46,852 nt of DNA, from IMG/VR virus record IMGVR_UViG_3300019124_000012, positions 1-46,852 of that record; one strand, 5' to 3'. The stretch is from a virus. Positions 9,257 to 46,852 of the stretch are shown here, piece by piece. The notes under the pieces are model-generated. The model did no database searches. It was not told where the DNA came from and saw only the letters and a list, made by a program, of their open reading frames with translations. How positions within the stretch are numbered: the first letter of the stretch is position 1; every line of letters starts with the position of its first letter. The translations under genes and the position numbers were made by a program.

Positions 9257-11341
9257 ATGCTTTCAAACGCGCCTGTCGAGATCGCGGCTCCGTCCGTTCG
9301 CGCTCAGGTCGTTACACGTCGCACCTACAACAGGCCCCTGGATGACCAGGGGTCTATTTTTGAAACCTGGGAGCAGACGGTTGACCGTGTGATCTCCCAT
9401 CAGCGCTGGCTCTGGGAACGCGCCAAGGGCCGCGTGAAGACCGTCGAGTACGGCAACAAGTTCACTGGAGAGGTCCAGCAGCGCCAGGAGTTCGTCCCTG
9501 GCAAGCTCACGGCTCGCGAGGAGCTGGAGCTGGACGAGCTTCGTCAGCTCATGCTGGCCCGTAAGGCTGTCACGGCAGGCCGCACCCTTTGGCTGGGTGG
9601 CACGGAGATCGCGAAGCGCCGTGAAGCCTCGATGTTCAATTGCAGCTTCGCTCGCGTGGAGACAGTTAATGATGTTGTCGATGGCTTCTGGAATCTTCTC
9701 CAGGGCTGCGGCGTTGGCTTTGAGCCTGTCGTTGGCACTCTCTCAGGTTTCACAAAGCCCGTCGAATTGGAGCTTCGTCGCTCCGCAAAGACCAAAGATG
9801 ACCCGAAAGGTCGTGAGACGAATCTGGAAACCATCGAAAACGTCGATGGCAAAGTAGTCTGGACGATCCTGATCGGTGACTCGGCTGAGGCTTGGTCGAA
9901 GGTTCCCGGCAAGCTCCTGGCGAACAAGGTGATGTGCGACAAGCTCATCCTCGACTACACGGAGATCCGTGGAGCCGGTGTTCGCCTCAAGGGGTACGGA
10001 TGGATCTCCTCAGGCGACGAGACGCTCTCCAAGGCTCTCGCGGCCATCGTGACGCTCCTGAACAAGCGAGCCGGTCAGCTCCTGACCCGTATCGACATTC
10101 TGGACATCATGAACCACCTGGGGACGACCCTTAGCTCCCGCAGGAGCGCAGAGATCGCCATTGTGCCTTATGGTGATCCTGAGTGGATTCCCTTCGCCAA
10201 GGCCAAGAAAGACCACTGGATCGACAACCCTCAGAGGGCTCAGTCGAACAACTCCATCGTCTTCTACCACCGTCCCTCCAAGGCAGAGCTTCAGGACATC
10301 TTCGACCTGATGATCGATGCCGGTGGCTCGGAGCCTGGGTTCATCAACGGCACCGCAGCGCTCAAGAGAGCCCCGTGGTTCAAGGGCGTGAATCCGTGTG
10401 CAGAAATTCTGCTAGGTAATAAATCCTATTGTAACCTTGTTGAGGTGGACCTCGGCAAGTTCAATGGGGATTGGGAAGGCCTCTGCGAGGCACAGCGCCT
10501 GATCGCCAGGGCGAACTACCGGCAGACTTGCGTGGACCTCAGGGACGGCATCTTGCAGGACTCCTGGCATGAGCTGAACCAGTTCCTGCGCCTGACCGGT
10601 GGTGGTGTGACGGGTATCGTCCGCTGGGAGCATCAGCACTCCGCTGAACACCGTAAGGCTCTCAGGAACATCGCGAAGCTCGCGAGCTACAAGATGGCTG
10701 ACGAGCTGGATATGCCGCGCTCCAAGGCCGTGACCACGATCAAGCCTTCAGGAACCCTGAGCAAGATCATGGACACGACGGAGGGCCTGCATAAGCCCCT
10801 TGGCCGCTACATCTTCAACAACGTCCGCTTCTCCAAGCACGATCCCCTGGTGGAGATCTGCCGGGAGGCTGGCTACCGGGTCTTCGATGATCCCTATGCC
10901 TCGGATGCTGTCCTCATCACCTTCCCGGTCGCCTGGGAGGATGTGGAGTTCGATGTGGTCGAGCGGGATGGCAAGATCCTCCATGTGAACCTTGAGTCCG
11001 CCGTCACGCAGCTTGATCGCTACAAGGCCTGGATGGACGACTATGTCGATCACAACGCCTCGATCACTGTGTCCTACGATCCCTCGGAAGTCCCTGAGAT
11101 CGTGGATTGGATCTACGAGAATTGGGACAGCTATGTGGGTGTGTCGTTCTTGTTCCGTAACGATCCCACGAAGACCGCAGAGGACTTGGGATACCCCTAC
11201 CTCCCGCAGGAGGTCGTCACGGAGGAGGCCTACAAGGCTTACGTGGCAAACCTGAAGCCTCTGGTGCTTGAGCAGCAGGCGAACAGCCTGGACGAGCTGG
11301 AGGACGAAGGATGTGCGACCGGCGCATGCCCAATCCGATAA
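9257..11341 (+). CDS. Ribonucleotide reductase, single-chain, class II-like (694 aa)
   Basis: Active-site finger GVNPCAEILLGNKSYCNLVEV and C-terminal Cys pair CATGACPIR. No beta-subunit gene is present in the genome. The class assignment is an inference. Confidence 0.75.
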   Translation: MLSNAPVEIAAPSVRAQVVTRRTYNRPLDDQGSIFETWEQTVDRVISHQRWLWERAKGRVKTVEYGNKFTGEVQQRQEFVPGKLTAREELELDELRQLMLARKAVTAGRTLWLGGTEIAKRREASMFNCSFARVETVNDVVDGFWNLLQGCGVGFEPVVGTLSGFTKPVELELRRSAKTKDDPKGRETNLETIENVDGKVVWTILIGDSAEAWSKVPGKLLANKVMCDKLILDYTEIRGAGVRLKGYGWISSGDETLSKALAAIVTLLNKRAGQLLTRIDILDIMNHLGTTLSSRRSAEIAIVPYGDPEWIPFAKAKKDHWIDNPQRAQSNNSIVFYHRPSKAELQDIFDLMIDAGGSEPGFINGTAALKRAPWFKGVNPCAEILLGNKSYCNLVEVDLGKFNGDWEGLCEAQRLIARANYRQTCVDLRDGILQDSWHELNQFLRLTGGGVTGIVRWEHQHSAEHRKALRNIAKLASYKMADELDMPRSKAVTTIKPSGTLSKIMDTTEGLHKPLGRYIFNNVRFSKHDPLVEICREAGYRVFDDPYASDAVLITFPVAWEDVEFDVVERDGKILHVNLESAVTQLDRYKAWMDDYVDHNASITVSYDPSEVPEIVDWIYENWDSYVGVSFLFRNDPTKTAEDLGYPYLPQEVVTEEAYKAYVANLKPLVLEQQANSLDELEDEGCATGACPIR

Positions 11342-12552: not shown

Positions 12553-15486
12553 TCAGCGAACGAGCCACTCTTCGACCTTGTCGGAGATGTCTCGCATCTT
12601 CCGCCAGCGTGGGCCTACAGGTTCGCCCTTGAGCATCCTGAGCTTTCCCATGAGCCCGATGGGCGACCACTCAGGGCGCTCCTCGCGAGGCACGTAGGGC
12701 CGATCAGGATCGTACTCAGGATTGAGGATACGCAGCTCTTCCCACACGTACTCAGCGTCCTCAGGAGGCACGACGCCCTCAGGGATCTTATCGACCTCGT
12801 AGACGAACGACGCTCGGTTGTTGGGATCGTCAGGATCGCCGTATGGATCGAAGTCAGGGTTCTTCCAGTAGACGCGCTGGACCCTACGCCTGAGGTAGTT
12901 CCCAAAGTCATCCCGAAGGTATTGGTCCTGCCAGCGTTCCTGGGCAGAGTCGCCCATCACAACAGGGCAGGCCGACACAACACCGATGATGTCCTCAGGG
13001 TCATCCGCAGCGGTCGCACGGCGCACCTTGTCGTCCACAAGGACCACGGACCAGCCGCGACGATCCTCGTTGTCAGGGTTACCATCCTCCCACTCGAAAT
13101 ACTCGGCATAGTCAGCGCCCGTGCCTGTGTAAGGACCGTCACCAAACGTTGCACCGTCGCCTCGCACATACCATTCGGTATCAGCCGCACCGTTGTTGTC
13201 CGAAGTGGCTCGGTAGAACTTGAAGCCGGTACTCTGAGTGCGATCCGCGTAAGAGCGGACAACGTCGTCAGCGGAACCAGACCGGTTGTAACCAAACAGA
13301 GCGCGGGAAGTAGACGTGTTGTACGCACCAAGCCCGTAAGCACCGGCACCAGCATCGATGAGCAACGCAGCGCCAGTGTTGTACTTGGCCGCGAGTACGT
13401 TCGACAGCCATGCACCGGCCCACGGCATGTAGAGGTTACCGTCAGAAGCCAGGTGCCACCCACCGCGACCATCAAGGGTCGCAGAGCCTAAGTAGGACAG
13501 ACCGTCGTTATACACACGGAAGCACCAAGCACCACCAGAGCCAACGAAGCCGATAGAGCCACCGTTGTTGTGAACAAAGCGGGTGCCTTCGTCCGTATCG
13601 TGCATCTCAAGCCACGATTGGTTCTGGCCCATACCCACACGGACCCTTTCGTTGGTGTTCAGGCCATTGGGGGTCCAGAGGGTGCCGCTAGAGCTGAGGG
13701 TCAGCAGGCTGGTTTCCCAGGCACCGGAAGCGCTCAGACGGTCGATATTGACCTGTCCTGCACGGCCATAGATGACGTTCTGCTTTCCATCGCCGCCCTT
13801 ACCAACCAGACGATAACCAGCCCACCCATCAGTTCCAGGGTGTTCAGCCGTGAAGCACCAACCAGCGCCTGTAGCAGTAACCGTTCCGGTGAAGGTCGCC
13901 CCAGAGAGGTTGGCCTTCTGAGCCAGGAGGTTATCCGCCTCGGTCTTGCTGTAGTAGTTCTGGGGATTCCACGTCTGAGCATTGGCCGCGCTCTGGGCTG
14001 CATTAGCGGCACTTGCGGCAGCATTGGCCTCAGAGGTCGCCGCAGCGTTCTTATGCGCCAGGGCAGAGGCAGCGGAGGTCGAGGCCTCGGAAGCCTTGGT
14101 AGAGGCCGTAGAAGCCGAAGAGGACGCATCGGCAGCCGAAGCCGCAGCCTCGGATGCTTTCGTGGTGATGAAAGTCGGATTGTCCGCGAGGAAGAGGATA
14201 TGCTCAACCTCAAACACGTCACCAACGGACCCCTCGGACGGGTCGAAACGGACACCCGTGATCGTGTTGGTCAACCAATCGGAGCCGTTGTTGATCTTTG
14301 TACTGTCCCTGAGGTCATAGACACAGTCGTACCAGACCCCATTGGCGAACGCCGGGGTTACGAGTGGTCGCCCGTTGTAGGCACCGTGACCGTGGCTGGC
14401 CGTCGTCCAATACAACTGCATCTGAGGGACAGCCGATCCGGTAGTGCGGCGAATACGGATCACAACCCTGGTGAACTTGCTGCCGTCAATGGACAGAGAG
14501 TTCCTCACGAAGTACAGGTCCGAATTGCTCCCGGTCTGTGTCACGACCAGAGGACCGCTTCCGCTCTGCGAGAGAGTGCCGTTGACACATGAGAAGCCCT
14601 GGACACCCTTGTTAGGGAACACAAAGGACTGAGGGTGAGCCTCTTGGAACGAGAGGGCCGTCAGGTACCCCTCAGCATACGCCCTCGCCGTCTCGGCTTT
14701 CGTCTCAGAGGTCTTTGCCGCATTTTCAGAAGCCTTCGCGTTGTTCTCGGAGGTCTTGGCAGCGGTTTCAGACGCCTTGGCGTTCGTCTCGGAGGTCTTG
14801 GCAGCAGTCGCACTTGCGGATGCCTCAGAAGCCTTTGTAGAGGCCGTAGAGGCCGATGTTGAGGCGTTGGAGGCGGAAGTAGCCGCAGCGTTCTTATGGC
14901 CCTCAGCGGTCGTCGCAGAGGCCGCAGCGGCGTTCTTAGACGCCAGGGCGTTGTCCTCGGAAGTCTTAGCCGCATTCTGGCTTGCGAGGGCCGCAGAGGC
15001 GCTTGAGGCCGCATTGGAGGCCGAAGTAGCCGCAGCGTTCTGAGAGGCCTTAGCGGCGTTCTCAGAGGCCTTGGCGTTCGTCTCGGAGGTCTTTGCGTTC
15101 TGCTCGGACACACTCGCAGCCACCTTGGAGGCCGCAGCCGCGTTGGCGTTGTCGATGGTCGCCTGGAGGGACTGAGCCGCCTGGGAGGCGCTGTTGGAGG
15201 AATCCGTTGCAGAGGCCGCAGAAGCCTGAGCGCTCAGATGGGCATCTTGGGCACTCGCAGCGCTGTTCGCAGCCTGGGTCGCGCTCGCAGCTCGGCTCGT
15301 ATCGGAAGCCTGAGCAGCCACAGAGGCGTTGAACGCGCTCTGGGCCGCATCGGCAGCAGCTTGGTCAGTCTCGCTCTTCTTCTGAAGAACGATGTTCATG
15401 GCCTCGGTAGCGTCTTCAAGCAGCTCCTGGGCCAAACGAATAGATGTCGGGCTGGGGTTGCCCTTGAAAAATCCTGAACTAGCCAT
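12553..15486 (-). CDS. Tail fibre / receptor-binding protein (977 aa from the ATG at 15486)
   Basis: Long Ala/Ser-rich repeats (AKTSETNAKASENAAK...), a central beta-rich domain, and a C-terminal GTGADYAEYFEWEDGN segment typical of autoproteolytic intramolecular-chaperone domains. The track start at 15495 is TTG. Confidence 0.75.
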   Translation of the reverse strand: MASSGFFKGNPSPTSIRLAQELLEDATEAMNIVLQKKSETDQAAADAAQSAFNASVAAQASDTSRAASATQAANSAASAQDAHLSAQASAASATDSSNSASQAAQSLQATIDNANAAAASKVAASVSEQNAKTSETNAKASENAAKASQNAAATSASNAASSASAALASQNAAKTSEDNALASKNAAAASATTAEGHKNAAATSASNASTSASTASTKASEASASATAAKTSETNAKASETAAKTSENNAKASENAAKTSETKAETARAYAEGYLTALSFQEAHPQSFVFPNKGVQGFSCVNGTLSQSGSGPLVVTQTGSNSDLYFVRNSLSIDGSKFTRVVIRIRRTTGSAVPQMQLYWTTASHGHGAYNGRPLVTPAFANGVWYDCVYDLRDSTKINNGSDWLTNTITGVRFDPSEGSVGDVFEVEHILFLADNPTFITTKASEAAASAADASSSASTASTKASEASTSAASALAHKNAAATSEANAAASAANAAQSAANAQTWNPQNYYSKTEADNLLAQKANLSGATFTGTVTATGAGWCFTAEHPGTDGWAGYRLVGKGGDGKQNVIYGRAGQVNIDRLSASGAWETSLLTLSSSGTLWTPNGLNTNERVRVGMGQNQSWLEMHDTDEGTRFVHNNGGSIGFVGSGGAWCFRVYNDGLSYLGSATLDGRGGWHLASDGNLYMPWAGAWLSNVLAAKYNTGAALLIDAGAGAYGLGAYNTSTSRALFGYNRSGSADDVVRSYADRTQSTGFKFYRATSDNNGAADTEWYVRGDGATFGDGPYTGTGADYAEYFEWEDGNPDNEDRRGWSVVLVDDKVRRATAADDPEDIIGVVSACPVVMGDSAQERWQDQYLRDDFGNYLRRRVQRVYWKNPDFDPYGDPDDPNNRASFVYEVDKIPEGVVPPEDAEYVWEELRILNPEYDPDRPYVPREERPEWSPIGLMGKLRMLKGEPVGPRWRKMRDISDKVEEWLVR

Positions 15487-15491
15487 TGCGA

Positions 15492-16097
15492 TCAATCGTC
15501 AAAATTAAGGGAATACGCAGGCATCACTTGAGCGTTCGTAAGCTCATCCTCGGAGGCCTGGTTGTTGAGATCCACAATCGCCTTGACGAAGTCGTCCTCG
15601 AATACTTGCTTACGCGGGTCCGTGTAGTGACCGCAGGCAAGCGAGAGGGCTCCGTTGTAAATGATGTCCGGTGCGATCTCAGTGAGCCAGTTGGAATCCG
15701 TGTCCTCGGTCAGGGCCGAAAAGTCGGCGTTGTAAACGAGCTGGATCACGTCGCCGGTCGCAGGCCGTGGACCGATGATGAACTTGGAGCCATTCCTTGC
15801 GAAGAACCGGGGAACACCAGGGTAGCGGGACTCCCGCAGGGCCGTGGTGAGATCGACCTTGGTCAGCTCCTGATCGCCAATGGTGAGCGAAACGAGCTTG
15901 AGGAAATCGCCGGGAATGTCCAGGCCATCGAAGCCATCCTCGACCGGGATGTACGCAACAGACTCGCTCGCGGGAACACGGAGAAGCCGCTGCGCTCTCT
16001 GGATGGCACTCTTAATGAAGTTTTCGACCAGTGATGGTGTGATGTCGCGCCGGTTGAGCATGGCGCGGAATTGCGCTTTGACTTCTCCGTAATTCAT
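15492..16097 (-). CDS. Head-tail adaptor / connector-like protein (201 aa)
   Basis: Lies between the capsid block and the tail fibre. Size and N-terminal helix (MLNRRDITPSLVENFIKSAIQRAQR) fit adaptor proteins. Assignment is positional. Confidence 0.5.
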   Translation of the reverse strand: MNYGEVKAQFRAMLNRRDITPSLVENFIKSAIQRAQRLLRVPASESVAYIPVEDGFDGLDIPGDFLKLVSLTIGDQELTKVDLTTALRESRYPGVPRFFARNGSKFIIGPRPATGDVIQLVYNADFSALTEDTDSNWLTEIAPDIIYNGALSLACGHYTDPRKQVFEDDFVKAIVDLNNQASEDELTNAQVMPAYSLNFDD

Positions 16098-32656: not shown

Positions 32657-33406
32657 TTAGATCCTCATGATGAAAGCGAGCGCATAGAACGGAGGACGGC
32701 CATCGGGGATCGAGACGTTGTGCGCGTGAGCGCCAGCCCAATCCATGCCGACACCGTGCGAGTGCGAGCCATCCGAATTGATGCCGTGGCGATGCCCCTG
32801 ACCACCACCAACCTTGCCTGTGGAGGTCGCTAGGTAGAGCGTGCCCTGGCCGAAGTAGTTGACCGCTGATGCAGAGCCGGTCCCCATGTTCCAGACGCTC
32901 GGAAGCGAGTGGTCGTGCGAGGGGATCTGGGCAATGGTCAGCGTGTGGTAGTCCGTGTAGCCACCGTGGTTGTGCGAGCCTGCCGCACCGGTCCATGCAG
33001 AGTGAACGTGAGAGCCCTGGGAATCCGTGGAGCCCCCTTGGGCCACAGAGCCACCGGTCGCTCCAACACCATACGAAGCACCAGCCCCTACGATGAAGCG
33101 ATCCTGAAGGTTCGGAGCGGTGATCTGACCGCCACCATCAGAGCGCGTATGGGTACCACCGTTACACAAGACCCAGCCTGCCGGGATCTGATTGATCGCA
33201 CCGGACCACATGAGGATGCCACCAATCGGCACACCACCATTCAACACATGCTGGGAAGCTGTTACGGGACCACTGATGTTCGGGAAGGTGTTCTTAAGAA
33301 CCTGCTTGATCAGCCTGATATGGTTATCGGTATCCGCAACTGGATCGGAACCAGCAGGGTTACCAGGGTTCAACGAATGTAAGTACGTTGCGGATTCAAT
33401 AGGCAC
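32657..33406 (-). CDS. Tail fibre protein with phage tail-collar domain and Gly/His-rich repeats (249 aa)
   Basis: GGILMWSGAINQIPAGWVLCNG...APNLQDRFIVGAG is the tail-collar signature. It is followed by GSHxH-type repeats (GSHVHS, GSHNHG, PSHDHS, GHRHG, GSHSHG, GAHAHN). GTG start. Confidence 0.8.
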   Translation of the reverse strand: MPIESATYLHSLNPGNPAGSDPVADTDNHIRLIKQVLKNTFPNISGPVTASQHVLNGGVPIGGILMWSGAINQIPAGWVLCNGGTHTRSDGGGQITAPNLQDRFIVGAGASYGVGATGGSVAQGGSTDSQGSHVHSAWTGAAGSHNHGGYTDYHTLTIAQIPSHDHSLPSVWNMGTGSASAVNYFGQGTLYLATSTGKVGGGQGHRHGINSDGSHSHGVGMDWAGAHAHNVSIPDGRPPFYALAFIMRI

Positions 33407-33444
33407 TTAAGGAATCCTTTGGTAATGAAAATTGATTGTTGAAG

Positions 33445-33474
33445 TAAAAGGGGAGCATCAGAGGCTCCCAAAAG
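33445..33474 (-). terminator. Hairpin GGGAGC-N7-GCTCCC with flanking A/T runs
   Basis: On the minus strand it reads cttttGGGAGCctctgatGCTCCCctttta. It lies upstream of the first structural gene, where it would stop minus-strand transcription coming from 34-35 kb. Confidence 0.45.
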
Positions 33475-33538
33475 AAGAACTTAAGGTTTTTCTTAAGATC
33501 TGAAGATTTCGCGGAGGCATCTGACGGCCTCTTCTTCT

Positions 33539-33584
33539 AAGAGTGGTCATCGGCTCGCATTTTTGGGCCTTAAGTCTTTGAAAC
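33539..33584. repeat. Left copy of the 45-46-bp inverted repeat (partner 40213..40257)
   Basis: The 29-bp core aagagtggtcatcggctcgcatttttggg (33539-33567) is the exact reverse complement of 40229-40257. The next 16 aligned bp match at 12-13 positions. Confidence 0.9.
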
Positions 33585-34068
33585 ATCGAAAAATTCCTGC
33601 TACATGCCCGACATTATTCCTAAGATTGCAATTGGCATGGATCAGGAGCGGTCGAAGCTCCGCAGCAGGACAACTTGTCGCACCCTAAGAGGAGCCTGGG
33701 GCCAGCCTGGGAGTCCCTGAGAGACTGAAGGTAGCGCGAATGTAACCGGTACCTTGAGGTTGGGCTGGGGGTGGACTTATGCGTCTGGGGAATATCTGGA
33801 GGAGTCCCAGAGGGTCACTCTCGCCTCCTCGGCTGAACAACAACGCTCGACCTTTAACCCTTTTTGCGAAGTGGGGTATGGCGGACCATAGGTGCCCCAT
33901 CCGCTCGCCTGGGACTCCTAAACTCGCCTGGGATCTGCCCCGCTTGTGTGCCCCGCAAGGGTGCTAAGTGCTTGAGTTAGCTTGTGTTTCTCAGGATAAG
34001 CAATCCCTAGCGTTGCGCTATTCATGCGAGAGCATGCGCGGACATTGGCGACATATCGCCAGCGCAAG

Positions 34069-34077
34069 TTATCCACA
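34069..34077 (+). promoter_or_regulatory. DnaA box, perfect consensus TTATCCACA
   Basis: Exact 9-mer, inside the 18-bp repeat cgcaagttatccacaaga (34063-34080). Confidence 0.6.
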
Positions 34078-34087
34078 AGATCGTGAG

Positions 34088-34096
34088 TTTTCCACA
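34088..34096 (+). promoter_or_regulatory. DnaA box variant TTTTCCACA
   Basis: One mismatch to TTATCCACA. Same orientation as box 1 and 19 bp away. Confidence 0.5.
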
Positions 34097-34155
34097 AGTG
34101 CCGCGAGATTTCGCGAGCTGCCGCTTGACATGCGCGAAACGCATGATCTCGCAAG

Positions 34156-34164
34156 TTATCCACA
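34156..34164 (+). promoter_or_regulatory. DnaA box, perfect consensus TTATCCACA
   Basis: Exact 9-mer in the second copy of cgcaagttatccacaaga (34150-34167). It is followed by the AT-rich tandem GAATTTT-a-GAATTTT. Confidence 0.6.
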
Positions 34165-34240
34165 AGAATTTTAGAATTTTGCATGTCAAGCCCTTGACAA
34201 AATTTTATTGCGCGGAACCGAATGCCCCTAAGATCCCATT

Positions 34241-34260
34241 AGAAGCCCACAGAAGCCCAC
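34241..34260 (+). repeat. Tandem 10-mer AGAAGCCCAC x2 (iteron-like)
   Basis: Two exact adjacent copies. An inverted partial copy, TGGGCTTC, is at 34311-34318. Confidence 0.8.
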
Positions 34261-34339
34261 GAACCCTATTTAGCTAGGATAGTAGCTCGCATGTATCCAA
34301 TGCCGCTCTATGGGCTTCCTATGCGATTTTACGGGCACA

Positions 34340-35008
34340 TTAGTGCAAGGGATAGCTAACGTTGCTGACGTTCTTATCCCAGCAGGCGCGGCATGGTCCG
34401 CAAGCATTCCCCTGGTTACGTGCGGGGCACACATGACCGGCTGGAGTTTCCGCCTTCCGATGCACGGTTGACGTATTCTCATGGTTCGCAAGCGGCTTAT
34501 CGCCAATCATGGTCGCACTAACGCGAACCACAAGGTTCTCAGGAAAATTCCCATAGGCCTTGCGATATTCCTTAATGATCTTTGCCTCGCGAGTCGGAAG
34601 CCAATGGCGGATTGTTGGCGTCTTCTCAGCAACGCGAACGATTGCCTTAAGCATGTCCAAGCTCTGGAGATCGCCACTATCGAACCAACGATGGAAAGGC
34701 TCGCCTGTCTTCTCAGAAGCCTTGACGATTTGGAACGCCATTGCATCGGACCACTTCTCAGGATTCTCCGAGATCATGCGAGTTGCTTTGAGATAGTTGG
34801 CTTCCCATCCCATGTTGACGCTAGGCCGCATGTTCTGGAGCTTGAGAGCATAGCAACGCGAGCAAACAGAACCTTCGATTTGCGCGAGCTTTCCGCCAAC
34901 GTTGCAGCGCTTTGCTGAGATCGCAAAAGAAGAGCCCGGCATCTTTGTGTTGCGCGTAGAGATTTCGCCAGCTTCCGCCTTAGCAGCCTTAAGAGTCATT
35001 GCGACCAT
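34340..35008 (-). CDS. Cys-rich protein resembling the phage 'gene product 88' family, function unknown (222 aa from the ATG at 35008)
   Basis: N-terminal C-x14-C-x2-C (CNVGGKLAQIEGSVCSRCYA), HRWFDSGD segment, and C-terminal C-x8-C-x2-C-x2-C (CPARNQGNACGPCRAC). GGAGAA RBS before 35008. The family name is from memory and not verified. Confidence 0.6.
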   Translation of the reverse strand: MVAMTLKAAKAEAGEISTRNTKMPGSSFAISAKRCNVGGKLAQIEGSVCSRCYALKLQNMRPSVNMGWEANYLKATRMISENPEKWSDAMAFQIVKASEKTGEPFHRWFDSGDLQSLDMLKAIVRVAEKTPTIRHWLPTREAKIIKEYRKAYGNFPENLVVRVSATMIGDKPLANHENTSTVHRKAETPAGHVCPARNQGNACGPCRACWDKNVSNVSYPLH

Positions 35009-35054
35009 TGTTTTCTCCTTTCTTGCGTTGGTGGTTCGCGTTGATTTGTGGCTC

Positions 35055-35073
35055 TTAGATACATGCGAATTAC
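35055..35073 (+). promoter_or_regulatory. Cassette variant ttAGATACATGCGAATTAC in the divergent control region
   Basis: Matches the 43100 copy (GATACATGCcAATTAC) and points toward the early genes. Confidence 0.35.
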
Positions 35074-35116
35074 GTTGGATTGCAAGAGGCAATTTTTTGC
35101 CCCTGTTGGCACATTC

Positions 35117-35135
35117 TGTCGCACCCCTGTCGCAC
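35117..35135 (+). repeat. Tandem TGTCGCAC motifs 11 bp apart (TGTCGCACCCCTGTCGCAC)
   Basis: The exact 13-mer TGTCGCACCCCTG recurs at 35196-35208. Further TGTCGCAC copies are at 33676 and 40078, with TGTCGCAT at 37351. Confidence 0.8.
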
Positions 35136-35195
35136 AAGAGATAAGCGCCAGAACCGTTGATTTGCTTATGCTTTTCCCCTGCCAATGGTCACTTT

Positions 35196-35208
35196 TGTCG
35201 CACCCCTG
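35196..35208 (+). repeat. Third TGTCGCACCCCTG copy in the divergent control region
   Basis: Exact 13-mer repeat of 35117-35129. Confidence 0.8.
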
Positions 35209-35365
35209 AATTTTCCGCTTGCATCGTAATTGGCATGCGTTTATTTGTAGTGCCACAAGCTGATTTGAACGGCTCACGAATACTTCGGAATACTCAAGCG
35301 CCTGAGGGGGCCTGGGGTCGAGGGGGCTAGGGGCCAGGAGGCGATAGGCCAGGAGGCTGCTAAGG

Positions 35366-35842
35366 ATGAAAGTCGAGGTCTACTTCAACTTGCACAGAAA
35401 GGTCTGGAGCGTCCGCAACGCTAAGACCAAGCGCCTAGTGGGGCATGCGTCTAGGCTCTTGCTTCGTGATGCCACGTTCAAGGTATCGGAAGCGGGTCGC
35501 CAGAGGGTTCTGAGGGAGCGCAAAAAGAACGTCCATGCGTTCGTGCGCGGGGAGCTGGAGGCTGCGGCCTGGGGCTTCGTGATGCTCGACCATCAGAGCA
35601 TCGGAACCGAATGGAACCTCTGCAAGCGCTCGAATAACGCCTATGCGCGAGCTGCTAACCGGCTTGGGGAGGAAGTCTCTTACAATCCCTACAAGGGGCC
35701 TTCGTTCTACCGCAAGTGGGACGGGGCAGAGGTGGCAGAGGCCGATATGGTCTACATGACCCTTGAGAACCACAAGGGGCGCGTGATGGCCTTCGACCCC
35801 TGCCAGATGAGCGCAGAAGAAAGCGCAATGGCTACCGAATAA
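35366..35842 (+). CDS. Hypothetical early protein (158 aa)
   Basis: AGGAGG lies 9 nt upstream. First ORF of the plus-strand early block. Confidence 0.6.
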   Translation: MKVEVYFNLHRKVWSVRNAKTKRLVGHASRLLLRDATFKVSEAGRQRVLRERKKNVHAFVRGELEAAAWGFVMLDHQSIGTEWNLCKRSNNAYARAANRLGEEVSYNPYKGPSFYRKWDGAEVAEADMVYMTLENHKGRVMAFDPCQMSAEESAMATE

Positions 35843-37294: not shown

Positions 37295-37397
37295 GTCCTT
37301 ACGGTAGAGCTAATCCTAAGGATTGAGTCCTTTGCTACCTGTGGAAAAAATGTCGCATTGAATGGTGTTCGCGAAACGTTCTTCTAGCAGAATACGT

Positions 37398-38062: not shown

Positions 38063-38087
38063 GAGGCTCTTCGGAGCCTCTCTTTTG
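38063..38087 (+). terminator. Factor-independent terminator GAGGCTC-TTCG-GAGCCTC-tcttttg
   Basis: 7-bp perfect stem, UUCG tetraloop and a T-rich tail after the regulator/TM pair. Confidence 0.65.
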
Positions 38088-38114
38088 AACCTGATATATG
38101 GGAGTTACGGTATT

Positions 38115-39281
38115 ATGCCAGTCTACATGGAAATGCGTAACGGTAAGCCTACGGGCGTCTGGATTGTCGAGGTCACGGTCAACCGGAAGCGCATGCCTCG
38201 CGTCCGTTGCCAGACGAAGCAGGAAGGCCTGAAGGTCGAGCAGCTCATCAAGGCTGGCCTGTATGACTTCGACAACAAGGACGTTCGCTCTCAGACAGGC
38301 TACACCCTTGGGCACCTCATGAACGACGAGCGCATGCTCAAGGAATGCTGGCCGACCACTGACCGGGATCGCCACAACAGCATGCGTCGGTTCCGTGAGT
38401 GCTGCGAGATCATCGGCACCAATGTGCTGCTCTCGGACCTCAAGACGGAACACATCGATGAGCTGATCGAGGAGCTGGAGAAGCGCCCTGCCCGTAAGCA
38501 GCGGACCAAGCGCAACCCCAACTCGGACAAGCAATACCGTTTCAGGGTCAAGCATGGTCTGACGAACCCTGACAATCAGGCCAAGACCCTCGCGCCTGCG
38601 ACCATCAACCGGTATCTGGCCGCGCTCTCGGAAGCTCTCGATTGGGCCAACACCCGCGAGTCCACCGGCTTCCTGGGCAAGCGCAACACGATCCACTTCT
38701 CCTGGCGTGACGAGCGCGGGAATGAGCGCGAGCATTGGCTCACCCCTGAGGAAGAGATCAGGATCGTGGAGTACCTGAGGACCAATAACGAAGACCCGCG
38801 CCCTGATGTGGCGACCGTGGTTCAGGTGCTGTGCGCGACCGGATGTCGTGTGGGCGAGATCCTCAAGCTCAAGCCGGATGCCATCGATCCCCTCGATGAA
38901 ACCATCCGCCTGGACCGCAAGACGACCAAGGGCAAGAAGACCCGCTACCAGCCGCTGGATCAGGCCCTGTGCATCGCCCTGAGGAACCTCAAGACCTCAG
39001 GCAAGATGCCGTCCTACAAGGTCATCCAGAGGCAGTTCTACCGCGCCAGGAAGGCCTGCAAGGTGGAATGTGCGGACATCACCCTTCACGGCCTGCGGCA
39101 CACCGTAGGAACGCAGATGCAGATCGCAGGCTTCACCATCGAGGAGACGGCGCAGTTCCTGGGTCACAGCTCGACCAGGGTCACAGAGCGCTACCAGCAT
39201 GCTGCCCTTCAGCAGAAGCGCCTGACCCTCGCGAAGCTCAAGGTGTCCAAGCAGCAGATGTTGGAGGCAAACAAGGCATGA
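38115..39281 (+). CDS. int: Tyrosine recombinase / phage integrase (388 aa)
   Basis: Catalytic boxes ATGCRVGEIL (Arg), HGLRHTVGT (H-x-x-R) and LGHSSTRVTERYQH (His...Tyr). Confidence 0.9.
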   Translation: MPVYMEMRNGKPTGVWIVEVTVNRKRMPRVRCQTKQEGLKVEQLIKAGLYDFDNKDVRSQTGYTLGHLMNDERMLKECWPTTDRDRHNSMRRFRECCEIIGTNVLLSDLKTEHIDELIEELEKRPARKQRTKRNPNSDKQYRFRVKHGLTNPDNQAKTLAPATINRYLAALSEALDWANTRESTGFLGKRNTIHFSWRDERGNEREHWLTPEEEIRIVEYLRTNNEDPRPDVATVVQVLCATGCRVGEILKLKPDAIDPLDETIRLDRKTTKGKKTRYQPLDQALCIALRNLKTSGKMPSYKVIQRQFYRARKACKVECADITLHGLRHTVGTQMQIAGFTIEETAQFLGHSSTRVTERYQHAALQQKRLTLAKLKVSKQQMLEANKA

Positions 39282-39858: not shown

Positions 39859-39871
39859 GGATTTGCAGTCC
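39859..39871. other. 13-nt copy of the tRNA-Cys anticodon stem-loop (GGATTTGCAGTCC); candidate attP core
   Basis: Identical to 11525-11537 inside the phage tRNA-Cys gene, in the same orientation. It lies in the integrase-RNAP spacer and has the layout GGA / 7 nt / TCC. Confidence 0.35.
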
Positions 39872-39963
39872 AGGTCGTTACGCCCCTTCCTGCCCCGCAC
39901 CTGAACGGCGATTCCTTAAGACTTCCAACGGGTTAGTTGATGTCAAGGGTCGCTGGCACCCCG

Positions 39964-39981
39964 CAGATACAACGTAATTCC
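39964..39981 (+). promoter_or_regulatory. Cassette cAGATACAACGTAATTCC sitting in the loop of a 9-bp inverted repeat
   Basis: AGATACAACGTAATT is identical to the 35851 copy. It is flanked by CCCCGCAGA (39960-39968) and TCTGCGGGG (39990-39998). Confidence 0.4.
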
Positions 39982-40150
39982 ACATGGTTCTGCGGGGCAC
40001 TTGACCCGGCCCTCCTCTACCCCGCAGCTTCACCGGTTGCAAGCCGCTACCTTGTTACTGCCAAGCCTGAGTCAGCTTGTCGCACTTATGGCCCAGCTTT
40101 TCCACAGCAAAGCTCTTGCGCGTACACCCGCGTATGGTATCTAAAGCGCA

Positions 40151-40168
40151 TCGACTCATCGTAATTCC
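40151..40168 (+). promoter_or_regulatory. Cassette variant tcGACTCATCGTAATTCC upstream of the RNAP gene
   Basis: Shares CGTAATTCC with the 39964 copy. Confidence 0.3.
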
Positions 40169-40212
40169 AGTTCAAATGGAGCTACGGAGCAAAACAGGGT
40201 TTTATCGTTGGA

Positions 40213-40257
40213 TTTCAAACGGTTAAGACCCAAAAATGCGAGCCGATGACCACTCTT
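40213..40257. repeat. Right copy of the 45-46-bp inverted repeat (partner 33539..33584)
   Basis: The 29-bp core cccaaaaatgcgagccgatgaccactctt (40229-40257) is the exact reverse complement of 33539-33567. It ends 61 nt upstream of the RNAP ATG. Confidence 0.9.
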
Positions 40258-43135: not shown

Positions 43136-43549
43136 ATGGATTTCAAGATTGGTCAGCGCGTGGTCCTGACAGAGGACTATCGCGCAAGCCCCACCTCCAC
43201 GGCTGCTCGCCCTGGCGCGACGGCCACGGTCAGGGGCTACAAGGAGTACGGCAGTACGCGGTTCGTTGATCTCGTCTGGGATCGCGAGAACGGGCTCGCC
43301 GGTACGCAGATGAATGGCGGCTACCGCCCTGAAGACTTCGTCGCGGACACGAACTCTCGGTTCATTGTGATCCGCGTGAACGGCAAGGGCACCTGGGAGC
43401 CTGCCACCAACCCGCATGTCCACTACAGCCGCGAGAGCGCGGAGAAGGAAGCCCAGAGGCTCGCAGGCAAGGTCGTTGGTTACACCTTCCGCGTCCTTCA
43501 GATGGGCACGGCCTACAAAGGCGTCACAACAGTTCAAGAGGTTGCTTAA
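43136..43549 (+). CDS. Hypothetical protein (137 aa)
   Basis: ORF in operon. Its stop overlaps the next ATG (TAATG). Confidence 0.55.
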   Translation: MDFKIGQRVVLTEDYRASPTSTAARPGATATVRGYKEYGSTRFVDLVWDRENGLAGTQMNGGYRPEDFVADTNSRFIVIRVNGKGTWEPATNPHVHYSRESAEKEAQRLAGKVVGYTFRVLQMGTAYKGVTTVQEVA

Positions 43550-44406
43550 TGCGTCTGACGATCCCTGCGATCATCGGGGCCTTCGTAGGCCTCCTGGGGC
43601 TCTCCGTTGTGGGAGGCTCCTTCTACACCATTGACGAGCGCGAGCGCGGCGTTCTGCTCCGCAATGGCGCGGTCGCGGGTGTGGCTAACCCCGGCTTGGG
43701 CTTCAAGATGCCGTTCATCGACACGGTGCGCGAGATCTCCGTGGAGACGCACAAGGCAGAGTTCAAGCAGCTCGCCGCATACAGCCGGGACCAGCAGCCT
43801 GCAACGATGGTTCTCTCGGTCAACTGGCGCATCGACCCCTCCCAGGTGGTCAGCGTCTACCAGCAGTACCGGGACATCGAGGGCATCGCCCAGCGGCTGA
43901 TCTACCCTCGCGTCAATGAGGCGACCAAGAACGTCTTTGGTGGCTTCAATGCCGTGACGGCCATTCAAGAACGGGCTCGCCTCAACACTGAGGTCCAGCT
44001 CGCGATCACTGAGGCGCTCAAGGGTACCCAGGTGGTCATTGAGGGCGTCCAGATCGAGAACATCGATTTCTCGGATGCCTACGAGGCCTCCATCGAACAG
44101 CGCATGCTCGCTGAGGTCGAGGTCCAGAAGGTTCGCCAGAACGCTGAACGGGAACGGGTGGCGGCTGAGATTGCCGTGACCAAGGCCGCAGCGCAGGCCG
44201 ATGCTCTCCGCAAGCAGGCTCAGGCTGAGGCCGATGCCATCCGCTTGAAGGGTGAAGCGGAAGCCCAGGCGATCCGCGCCCGTGGCGCAGCTCTTCGTGA
44301 CAATCCGCAGCTTGTCGATCTCGTCCAGGCAGAGCGCTGGGATGGCAAGCTCCCGCAAACAATGGTCCCTGGTGGGTCCGTTCCGATGATTGGAGTTAGC
44401 AAATGA
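43549..44406 (+). CDS. SPFH/band-7 (prohibitin-like) membrane protein (285 aa)
   Basis: N-terminal TM IIGAFVGLLGLSVVGG, an SPFH core (FYTIDERERGVLLRNG...), an Ala/Glu-rich coiled coil, and C-terminal AERWDGKLP. Confidence 0.8.
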   Translation: MRLTIPAIIGAFVGLLGLSVVGGSFYTIDERERGVLLRNGAVAGVANPGLGFKMPFIDTVREISVETHKAEFKQLAAYSRDQQPATMVLSVNWRIDPSQVVSVYQQYRDIEGIAQRLIYPRVNEATKNVFGGFNAVTAIQERARLNTEVQLAITEALKGTQVVIEGVQIENIDFSDAYEASIEQRMLAEVEVQKVRQNAERERVAAEIAVTKAAAQADALRKQAQAEADAIRLKGEAEAQAIRARGAALRDNPQLVDLVQAERWDGKLPQTMVPGGSVPMIGVSK

Positions 44407-46531: not shown

Positions 46532-46852
46532 TGGGTACCTTCGTTCGTCACGCTGAATGCCTCAACCCCAAGTGTGGCTCCAGCGATGGACGAGGTGTCT
46601 ATGAGGACGGAAGCTCCTGGTGCTTCGTCTGTGAAACCTACTTCCACGCTGATGGGGCTGAGGGCGACACCAACCCCCACTTCGACCCCACCACCTTCAA
46701 GTTCAGCAAAGGAGACTACGTAGACATCCCCAAGCGGGGACTGAAGGAAGCCACATGCCGCAAGTACGGCTATCAGGTCGCCAAGGACCGCCATATCGCG
46801 CCCTACCGTGGCGCAAACGGCCAGATCATCGCTCAGAAGATCCGCAAGGCCG
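46531..46852 (+). CDS. DNA primase/helicase, N-terminal Zn-finger part (continues at base 128 of the window)
   Basis: MGTFVRHAECLNPKCGSSDGRGVYEDGSSWCFVCETYF is a gp4-type CxxC...CxxC zinc ribbon. The frame is continuous with 1..1446 through the 127-bp overlap. Confidence 0.9.
   Translation, partial: MGTFVRHAECLNPKCGSSDGRGVYEDGSSWCFVCETYFHADGAEGDTNPHFDPTTFKFSKGDYVDIPKRGLKEATCRKYGYQVAKDRHIAPYRGANGQIIAQKIRKA
46726..46852. repeat. Terminal overlap of the contig, identical to 1..127
   Basis: Exact 127-bp identity, read directly. Confidence 0.95.

Follow-up and report, generated by a model that had tools for sequence, protein, structure and literature searches.

Background

Phages with a T7-type replisome are the textbook case of replication that is independent of the host initiator. 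On other extrachromosomal replicons, such as P1 (oriR), F, pSC101 and RK2, the initiator DnaA acts as a helper at origins that have a cognate Rep protein and iterons, and on bacterial chromosomes the DnaA-box clusters of Escherichia coli (datA and DARS) and Bacillus subtilis bind DnaA, titrating or remodelling it, and are not replication starts. The datA locus needs an IHF site and promotes ATP hydrolysis, and DARS has three boxes, the core boxes being oppositely oriented; extra DnaA-box DNA, be it datA or box-carrying multicopy plasmids, delays re-initiation by draining DnaA. Among phages, the T5-like group has eight DnaA boxes that the untranslated terminal-repeat region contains, amid inverted repeats and at a distance from the replication origins, and that have been proposed, in an idea so far untested, to stop DNA injection via membrane DnaA (bioRxiv 10.1101/866236; PMC13250531). 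In this injection-stop (iss) region, found within the left terminal repeat, the boxes form fixed pairs 3 bp apart, conserved in all 25 T5-like phages compared (Davison, bioRxiv 10.1101/866236). Here we describe a cluster of three same-strand DnaA boxes in the viral genome IMGVR_UViG_3300019124_000012 (hereafter the window, the whole stretch of 46,852 nucleotides that was analysed), the genome of a phage with T7-type replication genes. We read the cluster, with our confidence evenly divided, as an accessory, lineage-specific DnaA-docking element that would act as a sink or a tether.

The DnaA-box cluster

The cluster lies in 930 bp of non-coding DNA flanked by the tail-fibre gene and by a solitary minus-strand gene (34340-35008) that encodes a protein of the GP88 family, that is, at the junction of the late and early regions. 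Three boxes, each held in a unit of an 18-nt repeat, were delineated as follows:

34069-34077, plus strand: DnaA box 1, TTATCCACA, a perfect match to the consensus
34088-34096, plus strand: DnaA box 2, TTTTCCACA, one mismatch, consensus-compatible
34156-34164, plus strand: DnaA box 3, TTATCCACA, a perfect match to the consensus
34063-34080, plus strand: 18-nt repeat copy 1, CGCAAGTTATCCACAAGA, holding box 1
34082-34099, plus strand: 18-nt repeat copy 2, CGTGAGTTTTCCACAAGT, 78% identical to copy 1, holding box 2
34150-34167, plus strand: 18-nt repeat copy 3, CGCAAGTTATCCACAAGA, 100% identical to copy 1, holding box 3

A first-pass annotation, made by a model from the letters of the DNA, had called boxes at 34069, 34156 and 34088, in one orientation within a 96-bp span, together with an exact 18-bp repeat, and all of these were recovered in place. 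The two perfect boxes are the only copies of TTATCCACA in the whole 46,852 bases. Spacing is uneven (19 and 68 bp start to start, or 10 and 59 bp between boxes), and AG..AAG flanks surround the 9-mer in all three 18-nt units. Because the sequence flanking the units is unrelated from one to the next, they look like discrete binding sites rather than a decayed segmental duplication.

The genome has 7 matches to the relaxed consensus TTWTNCACA (1.0 expected), a count that 0 of 100 shuffles reach, and boxes with at most one mismatch number 16 against 4.9 expected. The cluster score of 5 (two perfect boxes and a one-mismatch box on the same strand within 100 bp) was attained by none of 2000 genomes simulated under a second-order Markov model, the highest score being 3, seen once; these clustering statistics have to be read with the caveat that the boxes are copies of one repeat unit and hence not three independent events. 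A chance origin of the cluster was ruled out by these shuffles and simulations. Additional boxes, of the consensus-compatible (TTTTCCACA) and one-mismatch (TTATCCCCA) kinds, are present in other non-coding gaps of the early region, at 37340 (minus strand), 40098 (plus), 39543 (plus) and 39831 (minus).

Comparison with syntenic relatives

No close cultured relative was found, the RNA polymerase of the window being less than 30% identical to anything in 50,697 phage records, and the relatives are metagenomic. Five of them share the order tail fibre, long non-coding gap, early genes:

L090: RNA polymerase 55% identical to that of the window
L294 and L295: RNA polymerase 45% and 44% identical, respectively
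L304: GP88 75% identical, at the same position
L308: GP88 68% identical, at the same position

DnaA boxes were found in the homologous gap of none of the five. The gaps have in common with the window the blocks CTCTGGGACTCC, AACAACAAC..CTTTACC..TTTT.GAA, CTAAGTGCTTGA and GGACATTGGC/GCAATGTCC, which are kept between phages whose proteins share merely 28-55% identity. Since these short blocks are shared, the gap is probably a conserved cis-acting region, for genome ends, packaging or control. With respect to the boxes, it falls into two parts:

33800-34052: conserved non-coding scaffold, with blocks CTCTGGGACTCC, AACAACAAC..CTTTAaCC..TTTTgcGAA, CTAAGTGCTTGA and GGACATTGGC
about 34053-34196: lineage-specific segment with the boxes, placed by alignment between the conserved anchors GGACATTGGC (34040-34049) and ATTTTGTCA (about 34197-34205)

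In the MAFFT alignment with L304, a gap of about 75 nt in the L304 sequence runs across boxes 3-2, and the remaining segment aligns without box matches; on this alignment, the best one, most of the stretch with the boxes looks inserted in the window. The first-pass annotation had named a lack of conservation in related phages as an observation that would refute its proposal, and this is what the comparison gave: the boxes are absent from all five relatives while the non-coding blocks around them are kept. To judge from these alignments, the boxes look like a young, lineage-specific add-on of about 75-145 bp to a conserved junction or leader region. As relatives that share this replisome and non-coding scaffold lack them, replication in the family appears independent of the boxes, and the cluster, as far as the compared genomes tell, is not the origin from which this phage family replicates.

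The same pattern bears on the possibility that the boxes are a neutral passenger, i.e. a short piece of host DNA (for instance from oriC or a dnaA-promoter region) or a local motif duplication, recently acquired at a tolerant non-coding site and without a role for the phage. Such an origin would account for the confinement of the boxes to this lineage, for the indel relative to L304 and for the exact 18-nt duplication, which suggests a recent event; the boxes also share with the mobile GP88 gene a dip in GC content (0.48-0.54 over 34000-35300, covering both). The unrelated flanks of the three units, however, are unlike remnants of a segmental duplication, and no donor was found in IMG/VR, where the 18-mer CGCAAGTTATCCACAAGA has a single match, coding and unrelated, or among the plasmids searched. 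Together with the independent arrays at the equivalent position in many T7-supergroup phages, which argue for selection, this leads us to regard a passenger as quite unlikely. The 50,697 phage records contain no nucleotide homologue of the region.

DnaA-box arrays in other T7-supergroup phages

Arrays of DnaA boxes were encountered in several phages of the T7 supergroup. In the L001 group (L001-L003 and L094-L097, sampled twice, among viral contigs and among metagenome contigs; GP88 48% identical), 4-5 same-orientation boxes lie about 290-365 nt downstream of GP88, the first box adjoins an AT-rich stretch, and very AT-rich repeats extend over about 550 bp nearby. L067 displays four perfect boxes, arranged as two tandem pairs, in the divergent region upstream of an early operon with a T7-type primase/helicase. 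At least 120 contigs of IMG/VR have two perfect boxes within 30 nt, and the first 80 of them were examined for T7-like genes; among these 80, L176, L197, L209 and L223 are T7-like by GP88 and/or gp4 homologues, and all have arrays, with strong early promoters on one side and, on the other, tracts of short repeats like those of terminal regions. The box-pair query also matched non-coding DNA in several Microviridae/gokushovirus records.

Cultured phages of the genus Berlinvirus gave a similar picture. Escherichia phage P483 (KP090453, L298) harbors 5 perfect and 3 near-perfect boxes with 11-12-bp spacing at 37.2-37.4 kb, between a packaging gene and the early genes; this array occurs once in the record and is internal. 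In Shigella phage A7 (MK685668, L297), the array is seen at both ends of the linear record (1-150 and 39860-40058), and for this reason it evidently lies within the direct terminal repeat. We found no published description of DnaA-box arrays in Berlinvirus or the T7 supergroup in the searchable literature. Taken at face value, these records indicate that arrays have been gained independently at equivalent positions across T7-supergroup phages, which would argue for selection.

The recurrence also bears on what reads the boxes. What very different T7-supergroup phages have in common, at equivalent positions, is a same-orientation array of the exact 9-mer with similar AG...AG/GG flanks; the wider surroundings differ. 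A universal host protein is therefore the likely reader; the boxes are very probably true DnaA-recognition sequences, read by host DnaA, and neither chance matches nor the motif of a phage protein. The converse, that the units are iterons for a phage-encoded DNA-binding protein and match the DnaA consensus by coincidence, might draw on their conservation past the 9-mer (copies 1 and 3 agree at 18 of 18 positions, and every unit has AG..AAG flanks) and on the many small early open reading frames (ORFs) to which no function is assigned. We consider it highly improbable, given that an arbitrary 18-mer holds a perfect DnaA box with an estimated probability of about 8e-5, that the same 9-mer is found in unrelated phages of different hosts with differing early proteins, and that no protein resembling DnaA domain IV or Rep was detected among those scanned. 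The profile of mismatch positions in variant boxes was tried as a DnaA signature; by eye the result is mixed, aquatic phages varying at positions 3 and 5 and Berlinvirus at 4, 6, 7 and 8, and the profile was not used.

A broader proposal, which we put forward tentatively and with rather low confidence, is that recruitment of host DnaA to terminal or junction non-coding DNA is a general strategy that has hitherto gone undescribed and that linear phages with terminal repeats acquired on repeated occasions. It would span the T7 supergroup (Berlinvirus, many aquatic podoviruses and the window phage) and the T5-like phages, the window boxes being a young convergent instance. If it holds, such phages would shut off host initiation by soaking up DnaA, or would tether, bridge or protect their genome ends.

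Tests of origin models

The first-pass annotation had presented the cluster as an oriC-like module, possibly a plasmid-like origin. The features that matter for this question, besides the boxes, are the following:

34165-34210: AT-rich patch of about 46 bp and about 30% GC, abutting box 3 on the 3' side of TTATCCACA and including AAATTTTATT
34165-34180: tandem AGAATTTT, two copies, inside the AT-rich patch
34184-34199: palindrome TGTCAAgcccTTGACA, GC-containing, which interrupts the AT-rich patch and was not listed in the first-pass annotation

The AT-rich stretch with its tandem repeat is present as first described, the 50-nt window from 34158 having 30% GC against 58% for the genome and ranking among the 3-4 AT-richest windows of 40-50 nt; the patch is not unique, comparable AT-richness occurring at several other intergenic spots. 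In E. coli oriC, the unwinding element is on the same side of R1 as the AT-rich patch is of box 3. The element at box 3 accordingly has an oriC-like polarity, over about 46 bp at about 30% GC, though it holds the GC-bearing palindrome and is equalled elsewhere between genes.

With two perfect boxes and one one-mismatch box, the cluster falls within the box definition of the oriC-type unwinding module (BUS), namely up to 2 mismatches to TTATCCACA. That system further calls for at least three consecutive DnaA-trios (NAN, consensus 3'-GAT-5') no more than 16 bp from a box and on the correct side (PMC8287927). No box of the window has three or more trios within 16 bp, the longest run being 2 (boxes 1 and 3) or 1 (box 2), while about 15% of random positions in this genome satisfy this rule. 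L067 passes it at one box.

Requirements of plasmid-type origins were looked for with similar outcome: (i) Pfam scans of 30 proteins detected no Rep-like initiator, DnaA-like or replication-initiator domain, and scans with PHROGs and NCBIfam likewise gave none; (ii) there are no iterons separate from the DnaA boxes, the sole multi-copy repeat of the module being the 18-nt box unit, and AGAATTTT occurring just twice; (iii) blastn of 33950-34345 against 72,556 plasmids returned one irrelevant 32-nt match. For a T7-type origin, no clear phage promoter abuts the AT-rich patch; of the recurring motif GAtACAwsGyAATTAC, a candidate promoter, there is only a degenerate match close by, at 34282-34300 (minus strand), the good one being some 400 bp distant, at 33615-33657. 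GC skew was discarded as an origin indicator, since its change here coincides with the switch of the transcribed strand and is uninformative, and so was enrichment in GATC, 2 sites in 176 bp being the genome average (8.3 per kb).

What these data leave is an auxiliary, DnaA-assisted origin, at which boxes 1-3 would help to melt the AT-rich patch (34165-34210) and offer entry to the gp4-like helicase/primase or to host DnaB for a secondary replication start. T7 itself reportedly has a secondary origin, phiOL, in the left-end region, which is equivalent to this one. Three same-strand boxes with one of the AT-richest spots of the genome 3' of TTATCCACA, in the polarity seen with R1, are what such an origin would show; in addition, the L001 relatives too have an AT-rich stretch at the first box and about 550 bp of AT-rich repeats, and one box of L067 obeys the trio rule. 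Against this, trio runs in the window stop at 2 while 15% of random positions pass the rule, the patch is merely about 46 bp and is broken by a GC-containing palindrome, no initiator gene was found among the proteins scanned, and the change in GC skew tracks transcription. Absence of the boxes from five of five syntenic relatives means, moreover, that they cannot be the essential origin of the family. An auxiliary origin is unlikely in our view. Of the first proposal, then, the boxes and the polarity of the AT-rich patch stand, while trios, a Rep gene, plasmid similarity and boxes in relatives are lacking; its own alternative, a site for DnaA titration or regulation, fits the data better than either an oriC-like or a plasmid-like origin.

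A putative DnaA-docking element

We favour the docking reading because the boxes are non-random, appear to be an add-on, recur at equivalent positions in other T7-like phages and lack origin-specific features. Their sequence, their clustering beyond chance, their absence from relatives and this recurrence are observed; DnaA binding by the boxes, and all effects downstream of it, we infer. Three same-strand sites, two of consensus, high-affinity type and one TTTTCCACA, sit in a conserved non-coding junction, about 0.9 kb long, where the late and early arms of a temperate T7-supergroup podovirus meet, and each copy of the phage genome would bind a few DnaA molecules tightly. In the version that we prefer, the rising phage copy number would drain the host DnaA pool and delay host re-initiation; alternatively or additionally, DnaA binding might hold the junction or leader DNA on membrane-associated DnaA.

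Several points weigh against this interpretation. The docking is putative; Berlinvirus has 8-9 boxes per terminal repeat, beside which three would be a small sink, and a terminal or leading-end position of the boxes is suggested by gene order only. A neutral, recently captured fragment would equally be non-conserved in relatives. The AT-rich patch abutting box 3 in oriC-like polarity is superfluous for a pure sink or tether, and copies 1 and 3 are identical over the full 18 nt, which is more than DnaA needs for recognition.

Should the sink or tether prove true, it would represent a simple cis-acting means of host takeover or genome handling that requires no phage protein, and would give experimental traction to the long-standing, untested idea of injection-stop DnaA boxes in T5. 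More generally, consensus DnaA boxes in T7-type phages (the window, A7 and many uncultured relatives) raise the question of other uses of DnaA in infection.

The non-coding gap and its neighbours

Palindromes and inverted repeats surround the boxes, in addition to the palindrome that interrupts the AT-rich patch:

34047-34060: palindrome GGCGAcataTCGCC, newly listed here
34102-34115: palindrome CGCGAgattTCGCG, newly listed here
34129-34145: palindrome CATGCG-cgaaa-CGCATG, between the boxes, present where the first-pass annotation had put it
34025-34038 and 34140-34153: 14-nt inverted repeat, TGCGAGAGCATGCG / CGCATGATCTCGCA, enclosing boxes 1-2 and the palindromes 34047-34060, 34102-34115 and 34129-34145
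34124-34133 and 34181-34190: 10-nt inverted repeat, CTTGACATGC / GCATGTCAAG, enclosing box 3
34223-34338, minus strand: long imperfect hairpin directly after the GP88 stop, -60.2 kcal/mol, z = -4.7, without a U-tract
34340-35008, minus strand: Cys-rich GP88-family gene (PF17338), the only gene adjoining the box module

The boxes are thus found, as in the T5 iss region, inside inverted repeats and palindromes in a long untranslated region (930-bp gap, four palindromes). Read on the minus strand from the GP88 gene, the order is stop codon, hairpin (34338-34223), AT-rich patch with box 3, palindromes, and boxes 2 and 1; beyond box 1 come about 250 bp of blocks conserved in relatives, a promoter-like motif (33657-33615), a 45-nt element, a hairpin (33469-33451) and the start codon of the tail-fibre gene.

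A hidden gene in the gap was rejected. ORFs of 38-88 aa have negative codon-model scores throughout (-0.25 to -0.54 per codon, compared with +0.09 to +0.46 in real genes) and show no bias in GC content at third codon positions (GC3), and a PHROG scan of seven of them gave no significant match; the earlier statement that no convincing ORF covers the region is borne out by these scores and scans. A structured RNA at the boxes was likewise rejected, as nothing in Rfam matches the region even at E <= 1 and single-strand folding of 34020-34222 is only marginally better than that of shuffled controls on either strand (z about -2). Neither an attP nor a tRNA fragment was detected in the gaps.

The hairpin 34223-34338, which lies between the GP88 transcript and the box module, is probably a 3'-end or stability element. 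Its position makes doubtful the suggestion of the first-pass annotation that read-through from the Cys-rich gene would activate an origin by transcription, since a structure of -60 kcal/mol (34338-34223) stands directly 3' of that gene.

Control of transcription by DnaA is a further use to which the boxes might be put: DnaA-ATP, as a gauge of host growth state, would modulate a nearby promoter (that of the late operon, of an RNA antisense to GP88 or of the early genes) and so bias lysis-lysogeny or timing. DnaA is a known transcription factor, which stimulates lambda pR. The phage is temperate, with an integrase at 38085-39281, the palindromes and the three copies of CTTGACA in the gap could be parts of an operator or promoter, and more boxes of consensus type occur in early-region gaps at 37340 and 40098. 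We hold this role to be improbable: a search of both strands of 33000-35600 gave no sigma-70-like promoter, about 400 bp separate the boxes from the closest recurring promoter-like motif (33615-33657, minus strand), and the relatives regulate the same genes without boxes. A sigma-70 promoter overlapping the boxes was specifically dismissed, the TTGACA hexamers having no usable -10 by hand inspection.

The GP88 gene has a low GC3 (0.60 against 0.71-0.81) and a low codon score. With phages and prophages that share just 28-38% in their RNA polymerase and tail genes, the identity of GP88 is 70-75%, a disparity by which the gene appears to be mosaic and horizontally mobile among these phages. A mobile cassette of GP88 and DnaA boxes, an idea first raised by the boxes downstream of the 48%-identical GP88 of the L001 group and by the presence of GP88 in 3 of the 80 box-pair contigs examined, was rejected, because closer GP88 homologues (68-75% identity; L304-L309) have no boxes, nor do about 160 other GP88 loci. 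One GP88 homologue was observed in a T7-like prophage on a 5.5-Mb contig assigned to 'uncultured Cohaesibacter sp.' (L305), a clue to the host clade.

Several other elements were observed towards the late and early genes. A terminator-like hairpin (33451-33469, minus strand) separates the promoter-like motif from the start codon of the tail-fibre gene (33406), and is a possible attenuator or antitermination point for the late genes. Two copies of a unit of about 100 nt, inverted relative to each other, precede the tail-fibre/late operon (33539-33660, minus strand) and the RNA polymerase gene (40140-40257, plus strand); each is made up of the promoter-like motif and the 45-nt element, the latter 91% identical between the copies. 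L090 carries the same inverted-duplicate arrangement with a different sequence (1922-1966 / 9898-9942). The arrangement suggests co-regulation, or possibly recombination sites flanking a 6.6-kb early segment with the integrase.

The promoter-like motif at 33657-33615 is shared with relatives and with about 15 other places in the genome. A recurrent, partly palindromic motif, GAtACAwsGyAATTAC / CATGCCAATTrC, was noted at 1457, 18323, 24236, 33636 (minus strand), 35055, 35225, 35859, 39685, 39973, 40160, 43109, 44642 and other sites; it is mostly intergenic, is common to L090 (TCCATGCCAATTGCTATCTTA just upstream of the first early gene of that phage) and is a candidate phage-RNA-polymerase promoter or repressor operator. 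Another motif, TTGTCGCACCC(CTG), at 33675, 35116, 35195 and 40079, is present in three large early-side non-coding regions and is a possible operator.

Genome organisation and host

The assembly is circular, with a 127-bp overlap (positions 1-127 = 46726-46852). Early and replication genes are on the plus strand, from 35366 round the circle to about 12.5 kb, and the minus strand carries the structural genes, which extend from the tail-fibre gene at 33406 to position 12553 and form an inverted structural arm. The T7-type replisome attributed to the phage from the start was confirmed, with a T7-type RNA polymerase, a gp4-like primase/helicase, a family A DNA polymerase, endonuclease I and a 5'-3' exonuclease; other genes encode ThyX, ribonucleotide reductase, PhoH and a tyrosine integrase (38085-39281), on account of which the phage is temperate. 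Many small early ORFs have no assigned function, and no recognisable repressor was found among the early-region ORFs scanned. Two further genes drew attention. An ORF of 980 aa (12553-15495, minus strand) contains many periodic repeats of 21 nt (7 aa), especially at 14000-15120, and an SPFH/HflK-HflC-like protein is encoded among the early genes (43549-44406, plus strand), with hflC and hflK matches below the curated cut-offs.

A first scan of bacterial genomes for prophage relatives was negative, and a profile scan for relatives of the RNA polymerase returned Microvirga (41% identity), a Thiothrix metagenome-assembled genome (42%) and Caballeronia (28%), all distant and without boxes. On the strength of the GP88 homologue in the Cohaesibacter-contig prophage and the distant Microvirga RNA polymerase, the clues point to a host among marine Alphaproteobacteria.

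Comparison with known systems

The plasmid-type origins P1 oriR, F, pSC101 and RK2 resemble the window in having DnaA boxes beside an AT-rich stretch on an extrachromosomal replicon, but the window has no Rep gene that could be found and no plasmid similarity, and its phage has an integrase. The bacterial oriC unwinding system (PMC8287927) likewise combines high-affinity boxes with an AT-rich patch on the correct side of one box; in contrast, the window lacks a run of three or more trios, has a short AT-rich patch, is not conserved and is not beside genes of the dnaA/dnaN type. Calls of the Ori-Finder kind, in which DnaA boxes plus an AT-rich stretch equal an origin, are on this evidence unsafe for phages.

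With datA, DARS and the DnaA-box clusters of B. subtilis, the window shares a small set of 3-5 high-affinity boxes in non-coding DNA; those loci are chromosomal, whereas this one is viral and has all its boxes in one orientation.

Nearer in kind is the Berlinvirus array of P483 and A7, which has 8-9 boxes with an 11-12-bp periodicity in virulent phages, whereas the window has a looser cluster of three in a temperate phage with an inverted structural arm; both are T7-type, with same-orientation TTATCCACA boxes and AG/GG flanks in a non-coding region between the late and early blocks. The T5 iss region, finally, has eight boxes in pairs separated by 3 bp, as opposed to three boxes with 10 and 59 bp between them in the window, whose boxes are missing from five of five relatives and whose location is known by gene order only. 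In both cases, a phage with a lytic-type replisome has consensus and one-mismatch boxes interspersed with inverted repeats and palindromes, within a long untranslated stretch that lies away from the known (T5) or expected (window) start of replication.

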